Source of the DNA: a virus
Taxonomy: Duplodnaviria; Heunggongvirae; Uroviricota; Caudoviricetes
DNA length: 20,094 nucleotides
Reading direction: 5' to 3' (one strand)
IMG/VR virus record: IMGVR_UViG_2563366990_000010
Span: 1 to 20,094 of that record
Shown: in pieces, positions 1 to 15,708 of the stretch
Numbering within the stretch: the stretch's first letter is position 1
Layout: each line of letters starts with the position of its first letter
The notes under the pieces: generated by a model
What the model was told of the DNA's origin: nothing
Seen by the model: the letters and a program-made list of their open reading frames with translations, nothing else
Databases searched by the model: none
Translations under genes and position numbers: made by a program

Positions 1-243
1 TTATCTTGAAGGGTTAGTTGATGCGCCATTAACCTGAGCATTATTTCTTTCCCACTCCAGAATATCAGAAAGCCACCAACGATTGGGGTTTCCCTTTATT
101 GTTGGTTTAGGAAATGGTTTGCTGAGGGACTTTGGCTTTCTGTCTGGAGTACTCCAGAAATACAGAGTGCTTCGTGAAATTTTATATCGTTCCAGAATAT
201 CTTTGGTTAACAAGATTTCATTTGTTTTTGTAATGTCGTTCAT
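1..243 (-). CDS. AlpA-family excisionase / transcriptional regulator (Xis-like), 80 aa
   Basis: Complete ORF with stop at 1-3. The translation shows an AlpA-type HTH signature (ILLTKDILERYKISRSTLYFW ... NRWWLSDILEWE). GGAGA ribosome-binding site about 7 nt upstream of the ATG at 241-243. Sits at the distal end of the leftward operon where xis lies in lambdoid phages. Confidence 0.55.
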   Translation of the reverse strand: MNDITKTNEILLTKDILERYKISRSTLYFWSTPDRKPKSLSKPFPKPTIKGNPNRWWLSDILEWERNNAQVNGASTNPSR

Positions 244-272
244 TTTATTCTCCAGTTGAATTGTTTAATCAT

Positions 273-295
273 CGAAAAACCGCCCGAAGGCGGTT
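273..295 (-). terminator. Candidate intrinsic terminator on the minus strand between the 83-aa ORF and the xis-like gene
   Basis: Perfect 7-bp stem AACCGCC / GGCGGTT with a 4-nt loop at 278-295, followed on the minus strand by a U-run (plus-strand AAAAA at 275-279). Confidence 0.45.
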
Positions 296-296
296 G

Positions 297-548
297 TCAG
301 TTGATTGATGTGCGGCGCATTTTGCGAAGGCTGGCAATATGCTTTTCCTTCTCAATTTCTGCTTTAATCATGTGTAGTTCGTTGTGATCGATTCGCTCAA
401 ATTCTGCATTAAATGCGCTAATTGAAGCGGCTCTGGTTCTCCCATCCAGCCTTCGGAAGATTACCTGCGTCAGAGTGATTTTGCAGACTTCAACCGGATA
501 GTTGTTGGCATCGACGAAAGACTGCCCGCGCTGGATTAGAACGAACAC
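297..548 (-). CDS. Hypothetical protein, 83 aa
   Basis: ORF between exo and the xis-like gene; the first codon is GTG and the ribosome-binding site is weak. I recognise no family. Confidence 0.45.
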   Translation of the reverse strand: MFVLIQRGQSFVDANNYPVEVCKITLTQVIFRRLDGRTRAASISAFNAEFERIDHNELHMIKAEIEKEKHIASLRKMRRTSIN

Positions 549-596
549 CGGTAGTATTCCTTAATTGTCATATCATTTGCACCTCGTTGCTACTGG

Positions 597-1277
597 CTAT
601 CGCCATTGCTCCCCAAATACAAAACCAATTTCAGCCAGTGCCTCGTCCATTTTTTCGATGAACTCTGGCACCATTTCGTCAAAACCAGCCATGTATTTTT
701 CATCCCGTTCGACCACGACATAATGCAGTCCTTCACGCTTCATACGCGGGTCATAGTTGGCAAAGTACCAGGCATCTTTTCGTGTCACCCACATGCTGTA
801 CTGCACCTGGGCCATGTAAGCCGACTTTATGGCCTCGAAACCACCTAGCCGGAACTTCATGAAATCCCGGGAGGTAAACGGGCATTTCAGCTCAAGGCCG
901 TTGCCATCACTGCATAAACCATCGGGAGAGCAGGCGGTACGCATACTTTCGTCGCGATAGATGATCGGGGATTCAGTAACATTCACGCCGGAAGTGAACT
1001 CAAACAGGGTTCTGGCGTCGTTCTCGTACTGTTTTCCCCAGGCCAGCGCCTTAGCGTTAACTTCCGGAGCCACACCGGTGCAAACCTCGGCAAGCAGGGT
1101 GTGGAAGTAGGACATTTTCATGTCAGGCCATTTCTTTCCGGAGCGGGGTTTTGCTATCACGTTGTGAACTTCTGAAGCTGTGATGACGCCGAGCCGTAAT
1201 TTGTGCCACGCATCATCCCCCTGCACGATAGCTCTCACGTCGATCCCGGTACGCTGCAGGATAATGTCCGATGTCAT
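597..1277 (-). CDS. exo: Lambda-type 5'-3' exonuclease (Red alpha), 226 aa
   Basis: The translation is near-identical, from recall, to phage lambda Exo (YqaJ-type fold, same 226-aa length). Its start overlaps the bet stop. Confidence 0.95.
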
Positions 1278-2059
1278 ATTGCCACCTTCTGCTCTGCGGC
1301 TTTCTGTTTCAGGAATCCAAGAGCTTTCACTGCTTCGTCCTGTTTCAGTTCTGACAATGCACGAATGTCGCGGCGAAATATCTGGGAACAGAGCGGCAAT
1401 AAGTCGTCATCCCATGTTTTATCCAGGGCGATCAGCAGAGTGTTAATCTCCTGCATGGTTTCATCGTTAACCGGAGTGATGTCGCGTTCCGGCTGATGTT
1501 CTGCAGTGTGTGCGGTATTTTCGACAATGCGCTCGGCTTCATCCTTGTCATAGATACCCGCAAATCCGAAGGCCAGCCGGGCACACTGAATCATGGCTTT
1601 ATGCCGTAACATCCGTTTGGGATGCGACTGCCACGGCCCCGTAATTTCTTTGCCTTCTCGGGTTTTGAATGGTGCGCGGCGACATTCATCCATCCACTCG
1701 GTAACGCAGATCGGGTGATTGCGATCTTTGCGGTAAATCCGGCATGTACAGGACTCATTGTCCTGCTCAAAGTCCATGCCATCAAACTGCTGGTTTTCAT
1801 TGATAATGCGGGACCAGCCATCAACGCCAACCACCGGAACGATGCCGTTCTGCTTGTCAGGGAAGGCGTAAATTTCTTTCGTCCAGGGATTAAGGCCGTA
1901 CTGGTTGGCGACGATCAACAATGCGATAAATTGCGCATCGCTGGCATCACCTTTAAATGCCGTCTGGCGAAGAGTGGTGATTAGTTCCTGTGGGTCGACA
2001 GAATCCATGCCGACACGTTCAGCCAGCTTCCCTGCCAGCGTTGCGAGTGCTGTACTCAT
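1274..2059 (-). CDS. bet: Lambda-type single-strand annealing protein (Red beta), 261 aa
   Basis: The translation is near-identical, from recall, to lambda Bet (261 aa, RecT/Red-beta family). Lies directly between gam and exo as in lambda. Confidence 0.95.
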
Positions 2060-2064
2060 CCGTT

Positions 2065-2361
2065 TTATACCTCTGAATCAATATTAATTTGGTGACGGGC
2101 GATGGTTTCAGCCATGTAGCGGATGTGTTCTGCCATGCGTTCCTGAAAATCGACATCGTCATCAAATGCACGGGAAATAGCTTTTTTGCTGGCCCCGTGA
2201 CGTTGCAGATTATCGATGCATAGCGATTCAAACAGGTGTTGGGGCAGACCTTTTTCCAGGTCGTCTGCCAGCTCAGCTTCAGTTTCTTCACGGGCAATTT
2301 GCTGGTAGTGTCGTGCCCATGACTGCTCTTCAATGCGATCGGGGATAAGCCAGGCATTCAT
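2065..2361 (-). CDS. gam: RecBCD inhibitor Gam, short 98-aa form
   Basis: The translation matches the lambda Gam C-terminal domain ([14 protein letters not shown] ... [20 protein letters not shown]). Its ATG overlaps the upstream ORF stop (ATGA), so only the 98-aa form is encoded here. Confidence 0.92.
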
Positions 2362-4430
2362 GATTTATCACCTCCGAAATTTTCAAGCCTGTTGGCAATC
2401 ATGATGGCGATATCAGGGATTGCTGGCGCTGTGGCTATACATGCGGGGTTGGCGCACAAACCATAGACGGCGGCAATCACGAGCTGTCTTTTCCAGTCGA
2501 GAGTTACTGGCTCAGAATTGGCGTCATCGCCGGACGTATCACTGCCTGGCTCGTTCTGAACAACGGTTTCGCCCTCCTGAGCGGCATCAACAGAGTTTTC
2601 CTGAATGATCTTCTCCTCAGTTTGTGCTGAGTCTTCTCCATCAGCGGCGTCATTTTCTCCAAAAGTTTCTGTGTAAGTGCTATCGCCCATTACCGCACTA
2701 CAGTCAGGGCAGTTACCCCCGCCAGTCTGACCACAGACGCGGCAGTTTTTTTCCAGCTCCGGTTGCGCTACTGGGGCTGGCTGTTGCTCTTCTGGCCCGT
2801 TTTGTTGCGTATCCGGGCTGTTTTGTCCCGCTTCTGGGGCAATTTGTTCCACTTTGGACTGATTCTGGTCCTCAGTGTCGCGAGCCTGGATCCCCTTAAT
2901 CCACTTCGGGTCGGTTGGGTCGCTGATGCCTTCAACGAATTCTCCTCGAGAAGCTGCCAGTAATTTGTCGGCATCGACTGGATTCCTGGGGGGAATGTTT
3001 TCCCTGGCTTTATTGAGTTCCTCCCGCAGCTTCTGGTATTTCGTTTCTACAGATGAGACATTTTCCAGTGATTGCGTGTCCTCATTATGTTTAACTGGAA
3101 TTTTTTCCACTGATTCAGGCGCTGCCTGTTCATTAGCCATTGTGTCTGATGCTTGCTGCTTTTCTTCATCGTTATGTTTCTCTTCTGTTGTTCCGCGCTG
3201 CGGCATCGGGGCTGATGAGCGACCGCAGGCAATTTCCACGATCTCCGGATCCGGGTTAGTGTGATCGGTTTCGGTTAACACTTTGTTGAGATACTCAGTC
3301 ACGCGTGCCGGGATGGCCTCAATGCCGATTGGTGCTTCTTTCACGGAAGCCACCACAATGGCGCGGGAATAATCCAGCCCACCGGGCATGGCGATAAATT
3401 TGTCGCGAAAAACAGAAAAGGGCGGCTTATTCTCTGACACGATTTCTTCAACGCGTTTTGCGTGTGCTGGGTGCAGGTTATAAATATCCACATCCATTGA
3501 ACGGGCCAGAACGCCGGTGGCTACATCTCGTGCGAGTGATGTCTTATCATGTTTGAATCCTTCACCACGATCGGTAATATTTCCGCCGCCAGCGTTAGCA
3601 CCGGAAGGCGTACGGGTAATGCCTGAAACATAATTTCCGTTCTGCCATTCTTTTGTCAGCAGGCCCTGATCAAGGTAGTCAGTTTTCATCCAGGTGGAAA
3701 TGAACTTGTCGAATTCAGCCGGGCTGATGCGATGATTTGCAGAGTGGGGGAATGCTTTCCCTACAGATTCAGCCAGGCGACTAAGGTGATAGTTCGTCAG
3801 TTTATCCAGTTCATGATGCGCGGCGCGCACAGCAGTAAGCAGGCTCTGAAGGTAACTGTCCTCTGTGTCCATCTCCATACGGATCACGTTATTGCGTTGT
3901 TCTGGTGTGGCATGATGCCGGTATTTTCCATCTTCATCTTTGCTGAATAAGAAGAGGTGAAGGAAGCGATGAGTAAGGCTCAGAGTGGCGACGGGAATTT
4001 CACACTCAGAACAGTCATCGTCGCTGTCCGGGGATTCGTTTTTCTCCACATCATCCGGAATAGTTCCGTCCGGGTCATCGTTGTCATCGCCAGCAGTTGT
4101 GGCATCTTCACCGTTGATGTTGTCATTGAAGGGTATAGCCATCATGGTGATGCCATCTTCCCCGCCTTTTTCATAGCGGTTGCAGAATTCAGTATCAAAC
4201 ACGCCTTCCGGTGGAAGGTCATTCACGACGGGGAAATTTACGCGAACGGGTTTTTTGAAATCATCCTCGTCGTAGCCTGCATCGTCCATGGCTGCAATGC
4301 AGCGGGAAACTGCGACAGAAAGTTTTCTGGCATCAGCCCAGAAAAAACCGCCTTTGATGCCAAGGCGTTTTCTGACTTTATCGTTTTTTGCTTCGCAGTG
4401 TAGTGCAAAAGTCTGTTTATCAGCGCTCAT
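2358..4430 (-). CDS. Large acidic hypothetical protein, 690 aa
   Basis: Uninterrupted 2073-nt ORF in the leftward early operon immediately upstream of gam, translationally coupled to it. Contains poly-acidic low-complexity tracts, a C-x2-C-x8-C-x2-C motif ([15 protein letters not shown]) and a hydrophobic C-terminal segment. I recognise no family. Confidence 0.8.
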
Positions 4431-4504
4431 TGTATTTAAACCTCTGGCTGGATTAGAATTAGAGGCCCTTTGTCTGATTTCTCCGAATACGGTGACGCAG
4501 GGAG

Positions 4505-4538
4505 AAATCCGGTAGCCTGCGCTGCCGGATTTTTATTT
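4505..4538 (+). terminator. Hairpin plus T-run oriented as a plus-strand intrinsic terminator (possibly bidirectional)
   Basis: 8-bp perfect stem AAATCCGG / CCGGATTT at 4505-4532 with a 12-nt loop, followed by TTATTT on the plus strand. Sits at the 3' end of the minus-strand 128-aa gene. Confidence 0.4.
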
Positions 4539-4924
4539 CAGTGGAAGGTTGCCTGGTTTGCTGTTTTGTGAGTTGTTTTTCCCTTTTCGTGCTGGCATTC
4601 AGAGCAGTCGCACTCAGAATTTTCTCTTGCAAATTCAAGAGCCTGCGCCAGTGTATGGATTTGTTGTGCTCCAATGTTGCTTCTGACGACTTCACATGCA
4701 GCATGAATATATGGGCTTGGTGTTTTGCCATTTAACCCACATGAAACCAAACGACTGTCTTTATATTCGTTATTTCCAACTTCTGTAAGCACTGAAAAAG
4801 AAAATACAAAGTCGATTTTGTATTCTTTGCATATTTTACTGATGCGTTCTGCAATTTCTTTGAGTTCATTTATTGCATCAGGACTGGTTTCGGAAAATAT
4901 TTCATTTTGCGCAAGTTCTTTCAT
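4538..4924 (-). CDS. Hypothetical protein, 128 aa, in an AT-rich block
   Basis: ORF with soluble-looking composition and a Cys-rich C-terminal patch (ECDCSECQHEKGK). Local base composition is visibly more AT-rich than the flanking Red genes. No clear ribosome-binding site. Confidence 0.5.
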   Translation of the reverse strand: MKELAQNEIFSETSPDAINELKEIAERISKICKEYKIDFVFSFSVLTEVGNNEYKDSRLVSCGLNGKTPSPYIHAACEVVRSNIGAQQIHTLAQALEFARENSECDCSECQHEKGKTTHKTANQATFH

Positions 4925-4997
4925 TTTGATTTTTCCGTGATTGATAATTAATGCGGTTTTTATTTCGGCAGATATGGAAGGTGTATTTTATTACTCG

Positions 4998-5219
4998 TCA
5001 CAACGACTCTGCTTTTACGGGTAAGCCATCGCGCCCGATGAAAACTTTAATCATGCAGTCGGTAATGCATGTTTTTGTTGTGAAGTTACGAATATAGAGT
5101 TTTCTCTTTTCAATATTGTTTGCTGAAGCGATATATGTCCGACCTTCATGAAGAACATAATCGCCAGGCGTCACGCACTGACGTGGTATTTCATCAGTTC
5201 CGAAGTGATGAGCAATCAT
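4998..5219 (-). CDS. Hypothetical protein, about 73 aa
   Basis: The ORF track gives 4998-5237 from a GTG. I place the start at the ATG at 5217-5219, which has a GGAG 7 nt upstream. AT-rich. Confidence 0.4.
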
Positions 5220-5676
5220 AATTATCTCCATTTTCACAAATGAACTTTGTTGATGCGGTGCCTGGTGCCTCCAGGTGGCGTTAACCAGTTAACAATTAAC
5301 GCCGGGTCAGGGGACGATGACTTTCCGTGACATCCTGTCGGTTTAACTGTTCCGCGTGCGCTGAGCCGCATTCACCGCATCACAAAATTCACTTTAAAAA
5401 GGGCGGACATCAGCAATCGGCAAACCGATATCCGCCAAGGGTTACACACAGCAATGTTGTTATTCACAACCGGAAGCGCACGGTCGAAGAAATCTAACGA
5501 CAATCCTTCTATGGGAAAGAGTCTTCGCCTCGCGCTTTCGTGTAGTACCCTGGCTTTTCAGGGTAATGTCTGTTCAGTAAAGTGAGAGTGCCGGAACTCA
5601 CCCGTGTCCGGCGCACGATCTCCACCTCACCCGTGGAGAACTCCTCAACTACAAACCCCGTAAGGAGAGTGAATTT

Positions 5677-5886
5677 ATGACACAAGAAGAAAAAGTGATG
5701 TTTCTGATGCGGCTGGCTGTCGATACCTACAACACACAATTCAGGGAGAAAGATATACCTCAAAAGGCAGTTCCTGCCGCGGTAGATAAGGGCGGTGCTA
5801 TTGCCGTATTTTACGATGCATTTGAATCATTTTTTGATGAAAAACTCGACGCTGTTAGCGACTTCGGAACATCGAGTAATAAATAA
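5677..5886 (+). CDS. Hypothetical protein, 69 aa, plus-strand gene inside the leftward operon region
   Basis: Strong AAGGAG ribosome-binding site 8 nt before the ATG at 5677. Preceded by a 437-bp structured non-coding region. Its 3' end overlaps the convergent 119-aa ORF by about 30 nt. Confidence 0.5.
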   Translation: MTQEEKVMFLMRLAVDTYNTQFREKDIPQKAVPAAVDKGGAIAVFYDAFESFFDEKLDAVSDFGTSSNK

Positions 5887-6214
5887 CGTTCATTACGGTT
5901 CTTAAACAACAATCAGTGGGCTTGATGTTGTTCTTTTCAAGCTCACTTGCCATCACTTCCATTATTCTTGCGCTTACACGAATTATTTGGTGGCTGTAAG
6001 CGACGCAACTATCGCTGATATTGCTGTTTATTTCTATTACTTCATTTTCACTGGCGGCGCTAAATTTGGATATGCCGTTTCCATTGTCCTGTTTCAGTGC
6101 TGTTTCCGCTATCCGGATGCGTTCCTGCGTTGCGGAATTTGGGCTAAGTCGATAAACCTGTCTGGCATCTTCCAGAAGCAGGGCGATAATGTGCTTCAGT
6201 TCTGTTTCATTCAT
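5855..6214 (-). CDS. Hypothetical protein, about 119 aa
   Basis: The ORF track gives 5855-6235. I place the start at the internal ATG at 6212-6214, which has a GGAG 7 nt upstream. Confidence 0.5.
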   Translation of the reverse strand: MNETELKHIIALLLEDARQVYRLSPNSATQERIRIAETALKQDNGNGISKFSAASENEVIEINSNISDSCVAYSHQIIRVSARIMEVMASELEKNNIKPTDCCLRTVMNVIYYSMFRSR

Positions 6215-6245
6215 AGTTAACTCCGGTAGTTGCAATTTATTAATA

Positions 6246-6431
6246 TCAGGCGGTCAGCTCTTTAAGCTTCTGAACTGCTTTATTCATTTCATCCATACAG
6301 TCGATGAATTCGTCCAGTTTAAGCTGCATTTTTCCGGCGGCCTGAAGAATTTCAAGTTTTAAGGGCGCAAGTTTTTTGTTGTAATCGACGCAGGTTATTA
6401 ACTCGCGGCCAGTAATATTTTGGCTTGGCAC
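6246..6431 (-). CDS. Possible small ORF (61 aa) or the frameshifted C-terminal part of the upstream gene
   Basis: Begins with GTG and a weak ribosome-binding site. Overlaps the 3' end of the 6352-6633 ORF by 80 nt in another frame; its translation looks more helical and protein-like than the alternative frame. Confidence 0.25.
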   Translation of the reverse strand: MPSQNITGRELITCVDYNKKLAPLKLEILQAAGKMQLKLDEFIDCMDEMNKAVQKLKELTA

Positions 6432-6633
6432 GAGATCCGGGTCTTGAACCTACACAAACTATATAGCTCTCTTCTTTCCTCGGAAGGCCAGGTGCATCCA
6501 GCAGACGGCCTAGTTCGAATTTTTTTACGTTGACACCAGGAGGAATCACCTCGACGATAAACCCGATTTTTACCTTCGTTACACCGTTTGATGAGCTTGA
6601 CCATTTAACTTCATCGTTCAATTTGAACTTCAT
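6352..6633 (-). CDS. Hypothetical protein, about 93 aa, first gene after N
   Basis: GAGG ribosome-binding site 6 nt before the ATG at 6631-6633. Starts 9 nt after the N stop. The C-terminal 26 residues look atypical (see the frameshift finding). Confidence 0.5.
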   Translation of the reverse strand: MKFKLNDEVKWSSSSNGVTKVKIGFIVEVIPPGVNVKKFELGRLLDAPGLPRKEESYIVCVGSRPGSRAKPKYYWPRVNNLRRLQQKTCALKT

Positions 6634-6641
6634 CATTAACC

Positions 6642-6947
6642 TCAATCGTAATAAGCCGGAATTGATTTTCCGCGTTGTTTCTGGCGGCCTGAGCAAGTCA
6701 CACCCATTTCACTGCGTGGTTTGCGGTAGTAAATACGGTTCTGTTTACTCTCGACTTCTTCTGCCTTCTTGCAGCGAAGGCTTCCGAGTGATACTGCTTT
6801 GTCTGCTCCGACGCAACCAGAGATCTTTAGCGCAATCTTCCGTGTCAGTCTTTCACTACTGCGCCGCTCTGCAATAAGTTCTTCCCTGCGAGCTTTATAG
6901 CGGCTTTTTGCCGTACCTTTGGATTCTTTCCAGATTATGGTTACCAT
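6642..6947 (-). CDS. N: N-type transcription antiterminator, phage-21-like arginine-rich motif, about 101 aa
   Basis: Small, very basic protein whose N-terminus carries GTAKSRYKARREELIAERR, matching the arginine-rich motif of phage 21 N as I recall it. AAGGAG ribosome-binding site 6 nt before the ATG at 6945-6947. boxA/boxB lie directly upstream on the same strand. Confidence 0.8.
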   Translation of the reverse strand: MVTIIWKESKGTAKSRYKARREELIAERRSSERLTRKIALKISGCVGADKAVSLGSLRCKKAEEVESKQNRIYYRKPRSEMGVTCSGRQKQRGKSIPAYYD

Positions 6948-7057
6948 GATGGTCTCCTTTAAGTGGCTTTGGTGTATGACGCGTCGAGGTGTTTTTCTTC
7001 TCGATCGCGGCCTTGCAACTGAAATTCGCGTCATCCCCAAAACCACTTAGATTTTGG

Positions 7058-14520: not shown

Positions 14521-14546
14521 ACGTAATTACTTATCCGGGATTATAT
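14517..14546 (+). promoter_or_regulatory. Candidate sigma-70 promoter for the first antirepressor gene
   Basis: TTGACG (14517-14522), 18-bp spacer, TATATT (14541-14546). Same architecture as the promoter at 15463-15492. Confidence 0.5.
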
Positions 14547-14602
14547 TCTTCGCACGGTCGAGTTGGCCGTCGGGATTGGAACCCCGGATAGAGACCGCGA
14601 CA

Positions 14603-14628
14603 AACACACGCCGCGAGCGTGTTTTTTA
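14603..14628 (+). terminator. Leader terminator / attenuator-like hairpin about 55 nt downstream of the promoter
   Basis: Stem ACACGC / GCGTGT with loop CGCGA (14605-14621) followed by TTTTTTATT, located about 160 nt upstream of the antirepressor ATG. Confidence 0.5.
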
Positions 14629-14788
14629 TTGTCGTATGCACGCGCACATCTGAATTATGGTGGGGCGCATGGGGGAGCTGAAAAGCTCGCCGGTCGGTTT
14701 CCCGGTAGTTCCAACCCTGTGCGTCTCACCACCCGATGATTGGAACCTTACGGTGGTGATAGTTTAGAAACCACTAGAGGGCGTCATT

Positions 14789-15492: not shown

Positions 15493-15708
15493 CCGCTCCA
15501 TGGTGCTGAACACACCTTCGAAAGCGGAAACCGCGCCCGTCAGTCATGCGGATTTTTTATGTCCATTTTTCAGATATGGTCGGGTAGCGCGTATACCGAA
15601 AAACAGCCGCAAGGCTAAGGATGCGGGCCGAACTTTCGACGGTGTTCAAGTACCCGACCGCCCTGCTGAACACGGGGTGATCTGAACGAATCGAAAGGAC
15701 ATAAAACT

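Follow-up and report, generated by a model that had tools for sequence, protein, structure and literature searches.

In the Rac prophage of Escherichia coli K-12, the small protein KilR is toxic: Its expression breaks up Z-rings and, when levels are higher, disturbs MreB, bringing about filamentation that FtsZ suppresses and mislocalization of MreB (PMC12482147); the kilR gene is silenced by a repressor together with NusG/Rho termination and is induced through OxyS in oxidative stress (PMC5793797). The small RNA (sRNA) KilS of the same prophage has been confirmed by northern blot (PMC8175672), and RacC and RecE form an experimentally established pair, RecE being the trigger of a retron and RacC the blocker of its toxin, RcaT (bioRxiv 10.1101/2020.06.22.160242). 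At the equivalent place in its pL operon, phage lambda carries kil, which encodes a small FtsZ inhibitor without sequence similarity to KilR (PMC5793797), and in Salmonella, IsrB, a verified sRNA of 88/94 nucleotides (nt), came to light as an orphan terminator in the interval from sbcA (recE) to STM1010 (PMC2330248). Against this background, we analyzed an AT-rich block at about 4440-5240 in a 20,094-nt stretch of tailed-phage DNA (positions 1 to 20,094 of IMG/VR record IMGVR_UViG_2563366990_000010; the whole stretch is hereafter called the window), which an initial annotation had read as a horizontally acquired cassette of two small orphan genes bounded by hairpins, and possibly as a toxin/antitoxin (TA) or exclusion module.

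Our analysis indicates that the block is probably the kil segment of an N-antiterminated early-left (pL-type) operon in a lambdoid E. coli prophage resembling Shiga-toxin (Stx) phages. Within this operon, we infer the parts played by an orphan gene, ORF128, and by a candidate antisense RNA transcribed from the opposite strand.

Results

kilR in a lambdoid early-left operon

This part of the window is a lambdoid prophage's early-left operon, with every gene on the minus strand. Among annotated records, it is most similar to Escherichia phage PhiR5_2 (97%), to 75/02 Stx and POCJ13 of Shigella (92%), and to a prophage beside sapC in E. coli ML35; the order common to these relatives is int...exo-bet-gam-'exodeoxyribonuclease VIII' (recE')-hypothetical (ORF128)-kil...N-cI. 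The window is 100% identical to ML35 over 4201-5700 and 97.7% identical over 1-6385, with a different immunity region.

Both of the minus-strand open reading frames (ORFs) described earlier are present, one of 128 amino acids (aa) at 4538-4924 and one of 73 aa at 4998-5219. The mechanically called frame of the latter extends over 4998-5237 (79 aa), but the real start is the ATG at 5219, which has a GGAG 7 nt upstream. This gene (4998-5219, minus strand) is kilR, whose 73-aa product would inhibit cell division through FtsZ and elongation through MreB: This product matches the NCBIfam model NF008465 (FtsZ inhibitor protein) over residues 1-72 of 73 with 156.7 bits against a cutoff of 92, matches PHROG 294 with an E-value of 6e-38, and is 95% identical to the KilR of Rac-SA53. 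It also lies where such a gene is expected, within a repressor-controlled early-left operon and downstream of a KilS/DicF-like leader. Given the 95% identity to Rac KilR, the window protein presumably blocks FtsZ and MreB as well. Hence the description of the block as a pair of orphan genes holds for ORF128 but not for the 73-aa gene, which is a standard lambdoid early gene.

Minus-strand transcription entering from the immunity region would traverse, in this order, a KilS/DicF-like sRNA with its terminator, the kilR leader, kilR, a remnant of ydaE, ORF128, recE' and the gam, bet and exo genes.

The drop in base composition that first drew attention to the block was borne out by sliding-window calculation, which places the lowest GC content of the window (0.35) at 4691-5140. 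In 450-nt windows across the full 20 kb, the mean is 0.478 (standard deviation 0.042), and the global minimum of 0.353, starting at 4691, lies about three standard deviations below it; in 300-nt windows, GC falls to 0.347-0.350 at 4651-5100, as against approximately 0.50 in the recE-like gene and 0.50-0.52 over 5251-5700. Considered by feature, GC is 0.39 in ORF128 (0.31 at third codon positions, GC3), 0.315 in the spacer 4925-4997, 0.42 in kil (GC3 0.39) and 0.505 in recE' (GC3 0.50). The sense strand is A-rich, the AT skew being -0.2 to -0.3 on the plus strand.

The kilR leader and a KilS-like sRNA

The sequences upstream of kilR account for the right-hand palindromes. The kilR 5' leader (5220-5395, minus strand) is an STnc100/PasD-like structured region as judged by alignment to the Rfam model: STnc100 (RF02076) aligns end to end at 5205-5399, scoring 27.8 bits, which is below the gathering threshold of 47. 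STnc100 and PasD have been treated as related prophage sRNAs (bioRxiv 10.64898/2026.05.13.724894). The palindromes at 5261-5303 consist of perfect 8-nt arms (5277-5284/5296-5303) plus a CCTGG...CCAGG pair at 5261-5275, and these hairpins coincide with conserved hairpins of the STnc100 model. Their joint fold of -19.4 kcal/mol has a z-score of only -1.8, and by energy alone they are therefore unremarkable. The leader stretch 5239-5406 (168 nt) is about 85% conserved upstream of kilR in Rac-type phages and upstream of dicB in DicB-type phages. The same stretch is conserved at a similar level (about 85%) in many PPompW/Stx2a phage records.

Some 180 nt upstream of kilR is a KilS/DicF-like sRNA (5396-5489, minus strand) that ends in an intrinsic-terminator hairpin, with a stem at 5402-5436 followed by a U-run; this hairpin folds at -22.9 kcal/mol (z -5.2). 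The Rfam DicF model (RF00039) matches at 5401-5450 with 29.2 bits, below its gathering threshold of 48, as does Rac's own copy (41.1 bits). KilS (b4833) is annotated at the corresponding place upstream of kilR in K-12, and the window sRNA aligns with it over its full length, with the 3' half of the terminator and the downstream flank identical.

Both sets of hairpins that had been taken as the ends of a cassette exist, the left one with arms at 4505-4516/4521-4532 and the right one at 5261-5303, but they do not bound an insertion. Those on the right are elements of the kilR leader rather than insertion scars, and that on the left, as argued below, is probably a terminator on the opposite strand. 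We also considered the two sets as related inverted repeats, such as the ends of a miniature inverted-repeat transposable element or of a cassette, and rejected this: The two are unrelated in sequence, and they are parts of different conserved elements.

Two modules and the remnant of ydaE

Between kilR and ORF128 lies a non-coding, decayed 5' remnant of ydaE (4925-4997, minus strand), which is recognized by alignment with Rac and with relatives that retain the gene. The window keeps the first ~55 nt of ydaE, at 4954-5005, having lost the start codon, acquired early stops and undergone a deletion of about 199 nt. Intact ydaE, which encodes a 58-aa zinc-binding protein and overlaps the kil stop codon, occurs between kil and ORF128 in ST866, in relatives L015-L018, and in 6 of 33 viral contigs. 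The label 'Rtr1/RPAP2 family protein' in phiSTEC1589 belongs to YdaE and not to ORF128.

The kilR(-ydaE) module (4984-5481) is common to the window and Rac at 85% identity. In contrast, the module at 4445-4953 is absent from Rac- and DicB-type relatives, and the boundaries of presence and absence for ORF128 fall at about 4444 and 4953, the left one being 14 nt upstream of the recE' start. The block is thus composed of two separately assorting modules, kilR and ORF128, that are split by the decayed ydaE remnant. As such, the proposal of a horizontally acquired cassette between the recombination genes and N survives in part: The composition is distinct and the region is mosaic and variable, but it is not one cassette.

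ORF128 is a narrowly distributed gene under purifying selection

ORF128 (4538-4924, minus strand; PHROG 2016) is an orphan early gene specifying an acidic 14-kDa protein. Across ten alleles, pairs with dS values of 0.74-0.99 have ratios of nonsynonymous to synonymous divergence (dN/dS) of 0.18-0.33, and this purifying selection shows the gene to be real. Its product is hydrophilic and looks cytoplasmic, with a tail of the form ...SECDCSECQHEKGK...FH. Its invariant residues include C107 and C110, which form a CxxC motif, H74 and the C-terminal H128, and a further cysteine alternates by allele type between positions 62 and 66 (C62 or C66). These cysteine and histidine residues suggest, without proving, that it binds metal. 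The alleles themselves are mosaics (alignment A1; L004-L018), in which the N-terminal (AQNE../NPDQ..), central (LVSCGLNGKTP/FVSFGLYCETT) and C-terminal segments assort independently.

The family is narrow. A word-indexed search of 5.8 billion proteins returned 26 clusters, all of them E. coli 'hypothetical protein' entries with 58-95% identity to ORF128, and a profile search run exhaustively over 1.84 billion cluster representatives gave nothing credible beyond the family itself; one apparent relative, P0027, a 412-aa membrane protein of low-complexity repeats, was judged spurious. Of 5,426 complete E. coli genomes, 77 carry ORF128 (78 places in all), those of the O104:H4 outbreak lineage among them; it also occurs in four distinct phages among 50,697 records, and in no plasmid. 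Its position is fixed: The order KilR-(YdaE)-ORF128-RecE' was found in 12 of 12 genome contexts and in 33 of 33 viral contigs as far as each of them reaches. The same genes thus recur at this position in every ORF128-bearing relative that we examined, though a recognizable phage function attaches to KilR only.

Assigning a function by similarity was not successful. PHROG 2016 has no known function; no Pfam or NCBIfam model matched above threshold; a sub-threshold match to the Pfam family DUF1281_C (E = 2e-3; 18.2 bits against a cutoff of 22.8), seen in 8 of 15 members and spanning 40 residues, was set aside as uninformative; and in the profile search, no chain in the Protein Data Bank (PDB) was significant (best E 0.0021). 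PADLOC models detected none of ORF128, KilR, RecE', orf126 and YdaE (0 families at E up to 0.1), and a literature search on four ORF128 RefSeq accessions found nothing.

Does ORF128 form a pair with KilR?

Since expressed KilR is toxic (PMC12482147), and since each copy of ORF128 examined has kilR upstream in the same operon, ORF128 might neutralize or tune KilR as the second member of a TA or toxin/modulator pair. Such a pair should occur together, yet kilR-like DNA is found at 2,031 places in 1,873 of the 5,426 complete genomes, as compared to the 78 places in 77 genomes for ORF128. Because about 96% of kilR copies are without ORF128, an obligate TA pair, as the initial annotation had suggested, is unsupported: KilR is maintained in those genomes without this partner, and its silencing in K-12 is by repressor and Rho/NusG instead (PMC5793797). 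The arrangement of the genes also argues against pairing. They do not form a tight bicistron, being separated by the 73-nt ydaE remnant or, in 6 of the 33 viral contigs and several genomes, by intact ydaE, and a boundary of mosaic recombination falls between them. Moreover, KilR is nearly invariant (95-100% identity) whereas ORF128 diverges to 58%, and ORF128 lacks similarity to any known antitoxin and to any Pfam, NCBIfam or PADLOC model. We regard this pairing as very improbable.

A role in exclusion fares little better. Were ORF128 a 'moron' expressed in lysogens, that is, cargo for superinfection exclusion or anti-phage defense, its low GC relative to its surroundings (0.39 vs. 0.50; GC3 0.31) and its polymorphic, patchy presence would be typical of such accessory genes, and an exclusion gene, sieB, is indeed present in the neighboring region of Rac. 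However, a promoter scan of both strands over 4200-5900 found no promoter-like site from which a moron could be independently expressed in a repressed lysogen, and the gene lies inside the repressor-controlled early operon in the same orientation as its neighbors. The hairpin that follows it has no sense-strand U-tract in any variant, so the gene does not have a terminator of its own; nor does its product match any PADLOC or NCBIfam model, and this product is hydrophilic, unlike the membrane protein SieB. With neither a defense match nor a promoter, the exclusion module proposed at first does not stand, and the moron explanation is highly unlikely.

ORF128 in the slot upstream of recE

The position of ORF128 gives an indication of what it might do. 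There is a recurring lambdoid layout in which a division inhibitor is followed by one or two small variable ORFs and then by recE. Occupants of this slot include kilR-ydaE-racC-recE in Rac, dicB-ydfD-recE in the DicB type, STM1010-recE in Gifsy-2, kil-53-aa ORF-recE in mEp237 and 51-aa ORF-recE in Klebsiella phi5.1, the hypothetical proteins being 51-78 aa overall. Within its kil operon, ORF128, like racC, is the small ORF that directly precedes a recE-family gene. We suppose that it encodes a host-directed accessory protein of the early phase, which may bind metal, and because it fills the slot of RacC, the blocker of a RecE-triggered retron toxin, our leading guess is that it most likely blocks an abortive-infection or other defense response of the host. 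The basis for this guess is its position.

Several observations weigh against a counter-defense role. The domain through which RecE triggers the retron, its nuclease, is missing from RecE', and the slot also houses other functions, YdfD having been described as a lysis protein (PMC10448788). BLASTP finds no alignment between ORF128 and RacC at E-values up to 100. The structural comparison is also uninformative: AlphaFold2, run with two queries and alignments, produced poor models (predicted local distance difference test, or pLDDT, scores of 54.4 and 57.5), and Foldseek searches of the BFVD and PDB collections with the model gave nothing below an E-value of about 1, with template-modeling (TM) scores of at most 0.3.

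An alternative is that ORF128 is not directed at the host but serves as a partner or regulator of RecE' and Red recombination. RecE' (2358-4430, minus strand), the left neighbor of the block, is a 690-aa RecE-family protein lacking the C-terminal nuclease domain: Pfam Exonuc_VIII covers residues 54-197, and the NCBIfam model NF007259 aligns only over positions 1-598 of 877, below the equivalog cutoff. Its gene precedes a complete lambda-type gam-bet-exo set in the relatives. Linkage of the two genes is strict, in that the RecE' lineage (at least 90% identity) is confined to the four ORF128-bearing phages, and where the 5' end of recE is similar but RecE is full-length and retains its nuclease, genomes carry dicB/DUF1482 in place of ORF128; in addition, the recE' ribosome-binding site directly adjoins ORF128 and its 3' spacer. 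But linkage within so narrow and recently diverged a lineage is weak evidence for a partnership, the domain and fold searches of ORF128 gave no sign of binding to DNA or to a recombinase, and one relative (L017) retains ORF128 despite a deletion of gam-bet-exo. This alternative is unlikely, if less so than the moron.

A candidate antisense RNA between ORF128 and recE'

The left hairpin lies 5 nt past the ORF128 stop codon and has arms of 12 nt (92% complementary) around a 4-nt loop. Read on the plus strand, it has a fold energy of -24.2 kcal/mol (z -4.3), which none of 200 shuffles equaled, and UUUUUAUUU, a U-run, comes next; read on the gene-sense strand, it reaches only -15.6 kcal/mol (z -2.2), and a U-tract is missing. 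We hold with moderate confidence that this hairpin, at 4505-4532, is the terminator of an unannotated plus-strand antisense RNA of about 75 nt. As predicted from folding, natural variants and a covariance model, the candidate sRNA (4462-4541, plus strand) would be some 73-77 nt long and would comprise a 5' stem-loop, the terminator hairpin and the U-run.

This reading draws on the polarity of the hairpin, on the position of IsrB, on hairpins in other lambdoid lineages, and on a match in the Rac spacer together with a mapped RNA 3' end. The 113-nt spacer between ORF128 and recE' is present in exactly the 77 genomes, at the 78 places, that have ORF128, and it is a local peak of conservation, with 84-89% identity vs. 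66-81% in the flanking coding sequences and a mean column identity of 93%. Among 10 unique variants of the hairpin from 51 sources, the two-hairpin structure on the plus strand (28 pairs) has 98.9% of its cells paired, and eight of the nine variable pairs are changes of the A-U/G.U type that remain paired on the plus strand only. A separate counting tool returned 98% paired vs. 36-51% in slid controls, for a structure that was derived from the same alignment. Upstream are promoter-like elements, consisting of a -35 (TTGTAT, 4430-4435) that overlaps the recE' start codon, an 18-nt spacer and a -10 (TAGAAT, 4454-4459); the -10 stays TAGAAT or TAAAAT in all 10 variants. Of five other lambdoid lineages, four likewise have, just past the stop codon of the small ORF, a hairpin whose U-run gives it antisense polarity.

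Experimental support, of an indirect kind, comes from Rac. When the covariance model of the window RNA (R1) was used as a query, its best non-self match, a weak one, was the Rac racC-recE spacer, on the same strand and over the full length (L056:5422-5492(+) and L002:3428-3498(+)), and the geometry of the promoter-like site there is alike, TTGTTT-18-TAAAAT with the -35 overlapping the recE ATG. The first of these intervals corresponds to NC_000913.3 1,417,421-1,417,491(+). Among the MG1655 Term-seq entries in supplementary file 1 of PMC7815308 is a plus-strand 3' end at 1,417,486, described as 'antisense to racC', that falls in the U-run of the Rac hairpin; it is listed three times in a file that covers three growth conditions, with 185,664 and 146,140 reads in two of the entries. 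This 3' end is 2 nt from the racC stop codon, and the current K-12 annotation has no RNA gene at the racC-recE spacer.

Other results count against an antisense RNA. No double compensatory changes occur in the plus-strand structure among the 10 variants, such that covariation support consists of one-sided wobble changes from few independent lineages. The antisense promoter is weak, matching 3 of 6 positions at the -35 and falling below the threshold of the scan, which found 0 sites. The R1 match in Rac scores just 19.1 bits, and its E-value of ~0.009 is rough in that the calibration was short. Finally, the Rfam isrB model has no match in the window at E-values up to 1 and none in 4400-4580 (181 nt) at E-values up to 10.

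It is conceivable, although somewhat doubtful, that there is no antisense RNA and that the 4505-4532 hairpin acts on the sense mRNA only, as a 3' stabilizer, processing site or weak terminator, the A-run 5' of the hairpin being nothing other than part of an A-rich coding strand. Its location directly behind the ORF128 stop, the A-richness of the sense strand, a sense-strand fold that beats most shuffles (8/200) and the weakness of the antisense promoter all agree with this possibility. What it does not explain is the pattern of variation: Where the stem is imperfect or variable, the plus strand has G.U wobbles and the sense strand has C.A or A.C mismatches, so that the mirrored sense structure is 81.3% paired rather than 98.9%, and a sense-strand U-tract is found in 0 of the 10 variants. 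Furthermore, the probably related hairpin in Rac marks a very strong plus-strand RNA 3' end in vivo, and IsrB sets a precedent for a spacer of this kind encoding an sRNA on the opposite strand.

If the antisense RNA is produced, its promoter would overlap the recE' start, and the RNA would have a sequence complementary to that of the ORF128-recE' spacer, after the pattern of lambda OOP and IsrB. It might thereby reduce the read-through that expresses recE' and the Red genes, or it might act in trans.

Other features of the window

A full-length match to Rfam sok (101.5 bits against a gathering threshold of 59) at 19776-19947 on the plus strand implies that a type I TA locus of the hok/sok type is present elsewhere in the window. 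At 14541-14736 and 15578-15667, also on the plus strand, there are above-threshold Rfam matches to isrK (54.9 bits), C4 antisense RNA (71) and sRNA-Xcc1 (67.5), along with a sub-threshold c4-a1b1 target site; together these intervals look like a regulatory RNA cluster of the P1/P7 C4 or IsrK type.

To the right of 6385, the window diverges from ML35 and PhiR5_2. At 6246-7046 (minus strand), a 61-aa ORF aligns with no more than the C-terminal end of PHROG 2539 (a profile of 229 positions), to which the 237-aa protein of the relatives presumably belongs, and this ORF is preceded by a 114-aa ORF of PHROG 11941 and a 134-aa N-like ORF. This layout suggests a recombination junction that truncated the 237-aa gene.

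Discussion

Much of what makes this block conspicuous is already known from other prophages: KilR as a division inhibitor, and the leader and sRNA region preceding it, go most of the way toward explaining what had been supposed to be a TA cassette. What is new is modest, namely, a narrowly spread orphan early gene in a slot with an anti-defense precedent and a candidate antisense sRNA.

Taken jointly, these two elements might be described as an abundant but unannotated family of antisense sRNAs between the slot and recE in Rac- and Stx-type prophages, accompanied by ORF128 as a possibly metal-binding, counter-defense replacement of RacC. We advance this combined proposal tentatively, as less likely than not. 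If it is true, the sRNA family would regulate recE/Red expression or, in lysogens, work in trans, and ORF128 would block an abortive-infection toxin as a non-homologous functional substitute for RacC.

There are practical reasons to pursue both. ORF128 resides in medically important Stx prophages, including those of the O104:H4 outbreak lineage and Shigella Stx phages, and as an orphan maintained by selection in the slot of the only characterized blocker of a retron toxin, it is a reasonable candidate for anti-defense screens. The Rac counterpart of the antisense RNA is apparently highly expressed in K-12, according to published 3'-end data, yet is unannotated; its confirmation would add a prophage sRNA to the best-studied of bacterial genomes and provide a positional tie to Salmonella IsrB.

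A known system of comparable arrangement is lambda OOP, a 77-nt antisense RNA that overlaps the 3' end of the early gene cII and promotes its decay. OOP differs from the window candidate in belonging to the pR operon and in having an unrelated sequence. Closer in location is IsrB (RF01386) of the Salmonella prophages Gifsy-1 and Gifsy-2, which, like the candidate, is carried on the opposite strand of the spacer between a small ORF and recE/sbcA, with a TAGAAT -10-like hexamer near the recE start; the Rfam model scores Gifsy-2 isrB at 99.3 bits in that spacer, on the opposite strand. The covariance model of the window RNA does not match isrB either, and the two are best viewed as analogues by position and polarity.

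Among operons of similar design, the dicBF type (dicF-dicB-ydfD-recE, as in Qin and vB_EcoS-640R1) resembles the window in combining a DicF-family sRNA with a division inhibitor in the slot, and in a leader of 85% identity. It differs in that the inhibitor is DicB, acting via MinC, rather than KilR, the small ORF is YdfD, and the hairpin/antisense-terminator element before recE is missing. The RacC-RecE pair, RacC being the blocker of the RcaT toxin of retron-Sen2/Eco9, is comparable to ORF128 and RecE' in that a small orphan gene lies directly upstream of recE in the same operon; ORF128, however, is longer, has a CxxC/His motif and no similarity to RacC, and its RecE' neighbor is nuclease-less.

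The closest system remains Rac itself (kilS-kilR-ydaE-racC-recE in K-12). Where Rac has RacC (91 aa), the window has ORF128 (128 aa) and a deleted ydaE; and where Rac has RecT after RecE, the window has RecE' without a nuclease and then a lambda-type Gam-Bet-Exo set. In other respects, the two run in parallel, sharing the same order and operon logic, a DicF-like KilS, the leader, a KilR of 95% identity, a small ORF and a recE-family gene, as well as, just before recE, a hairpin with the polarity of an opposite-strand terminator.

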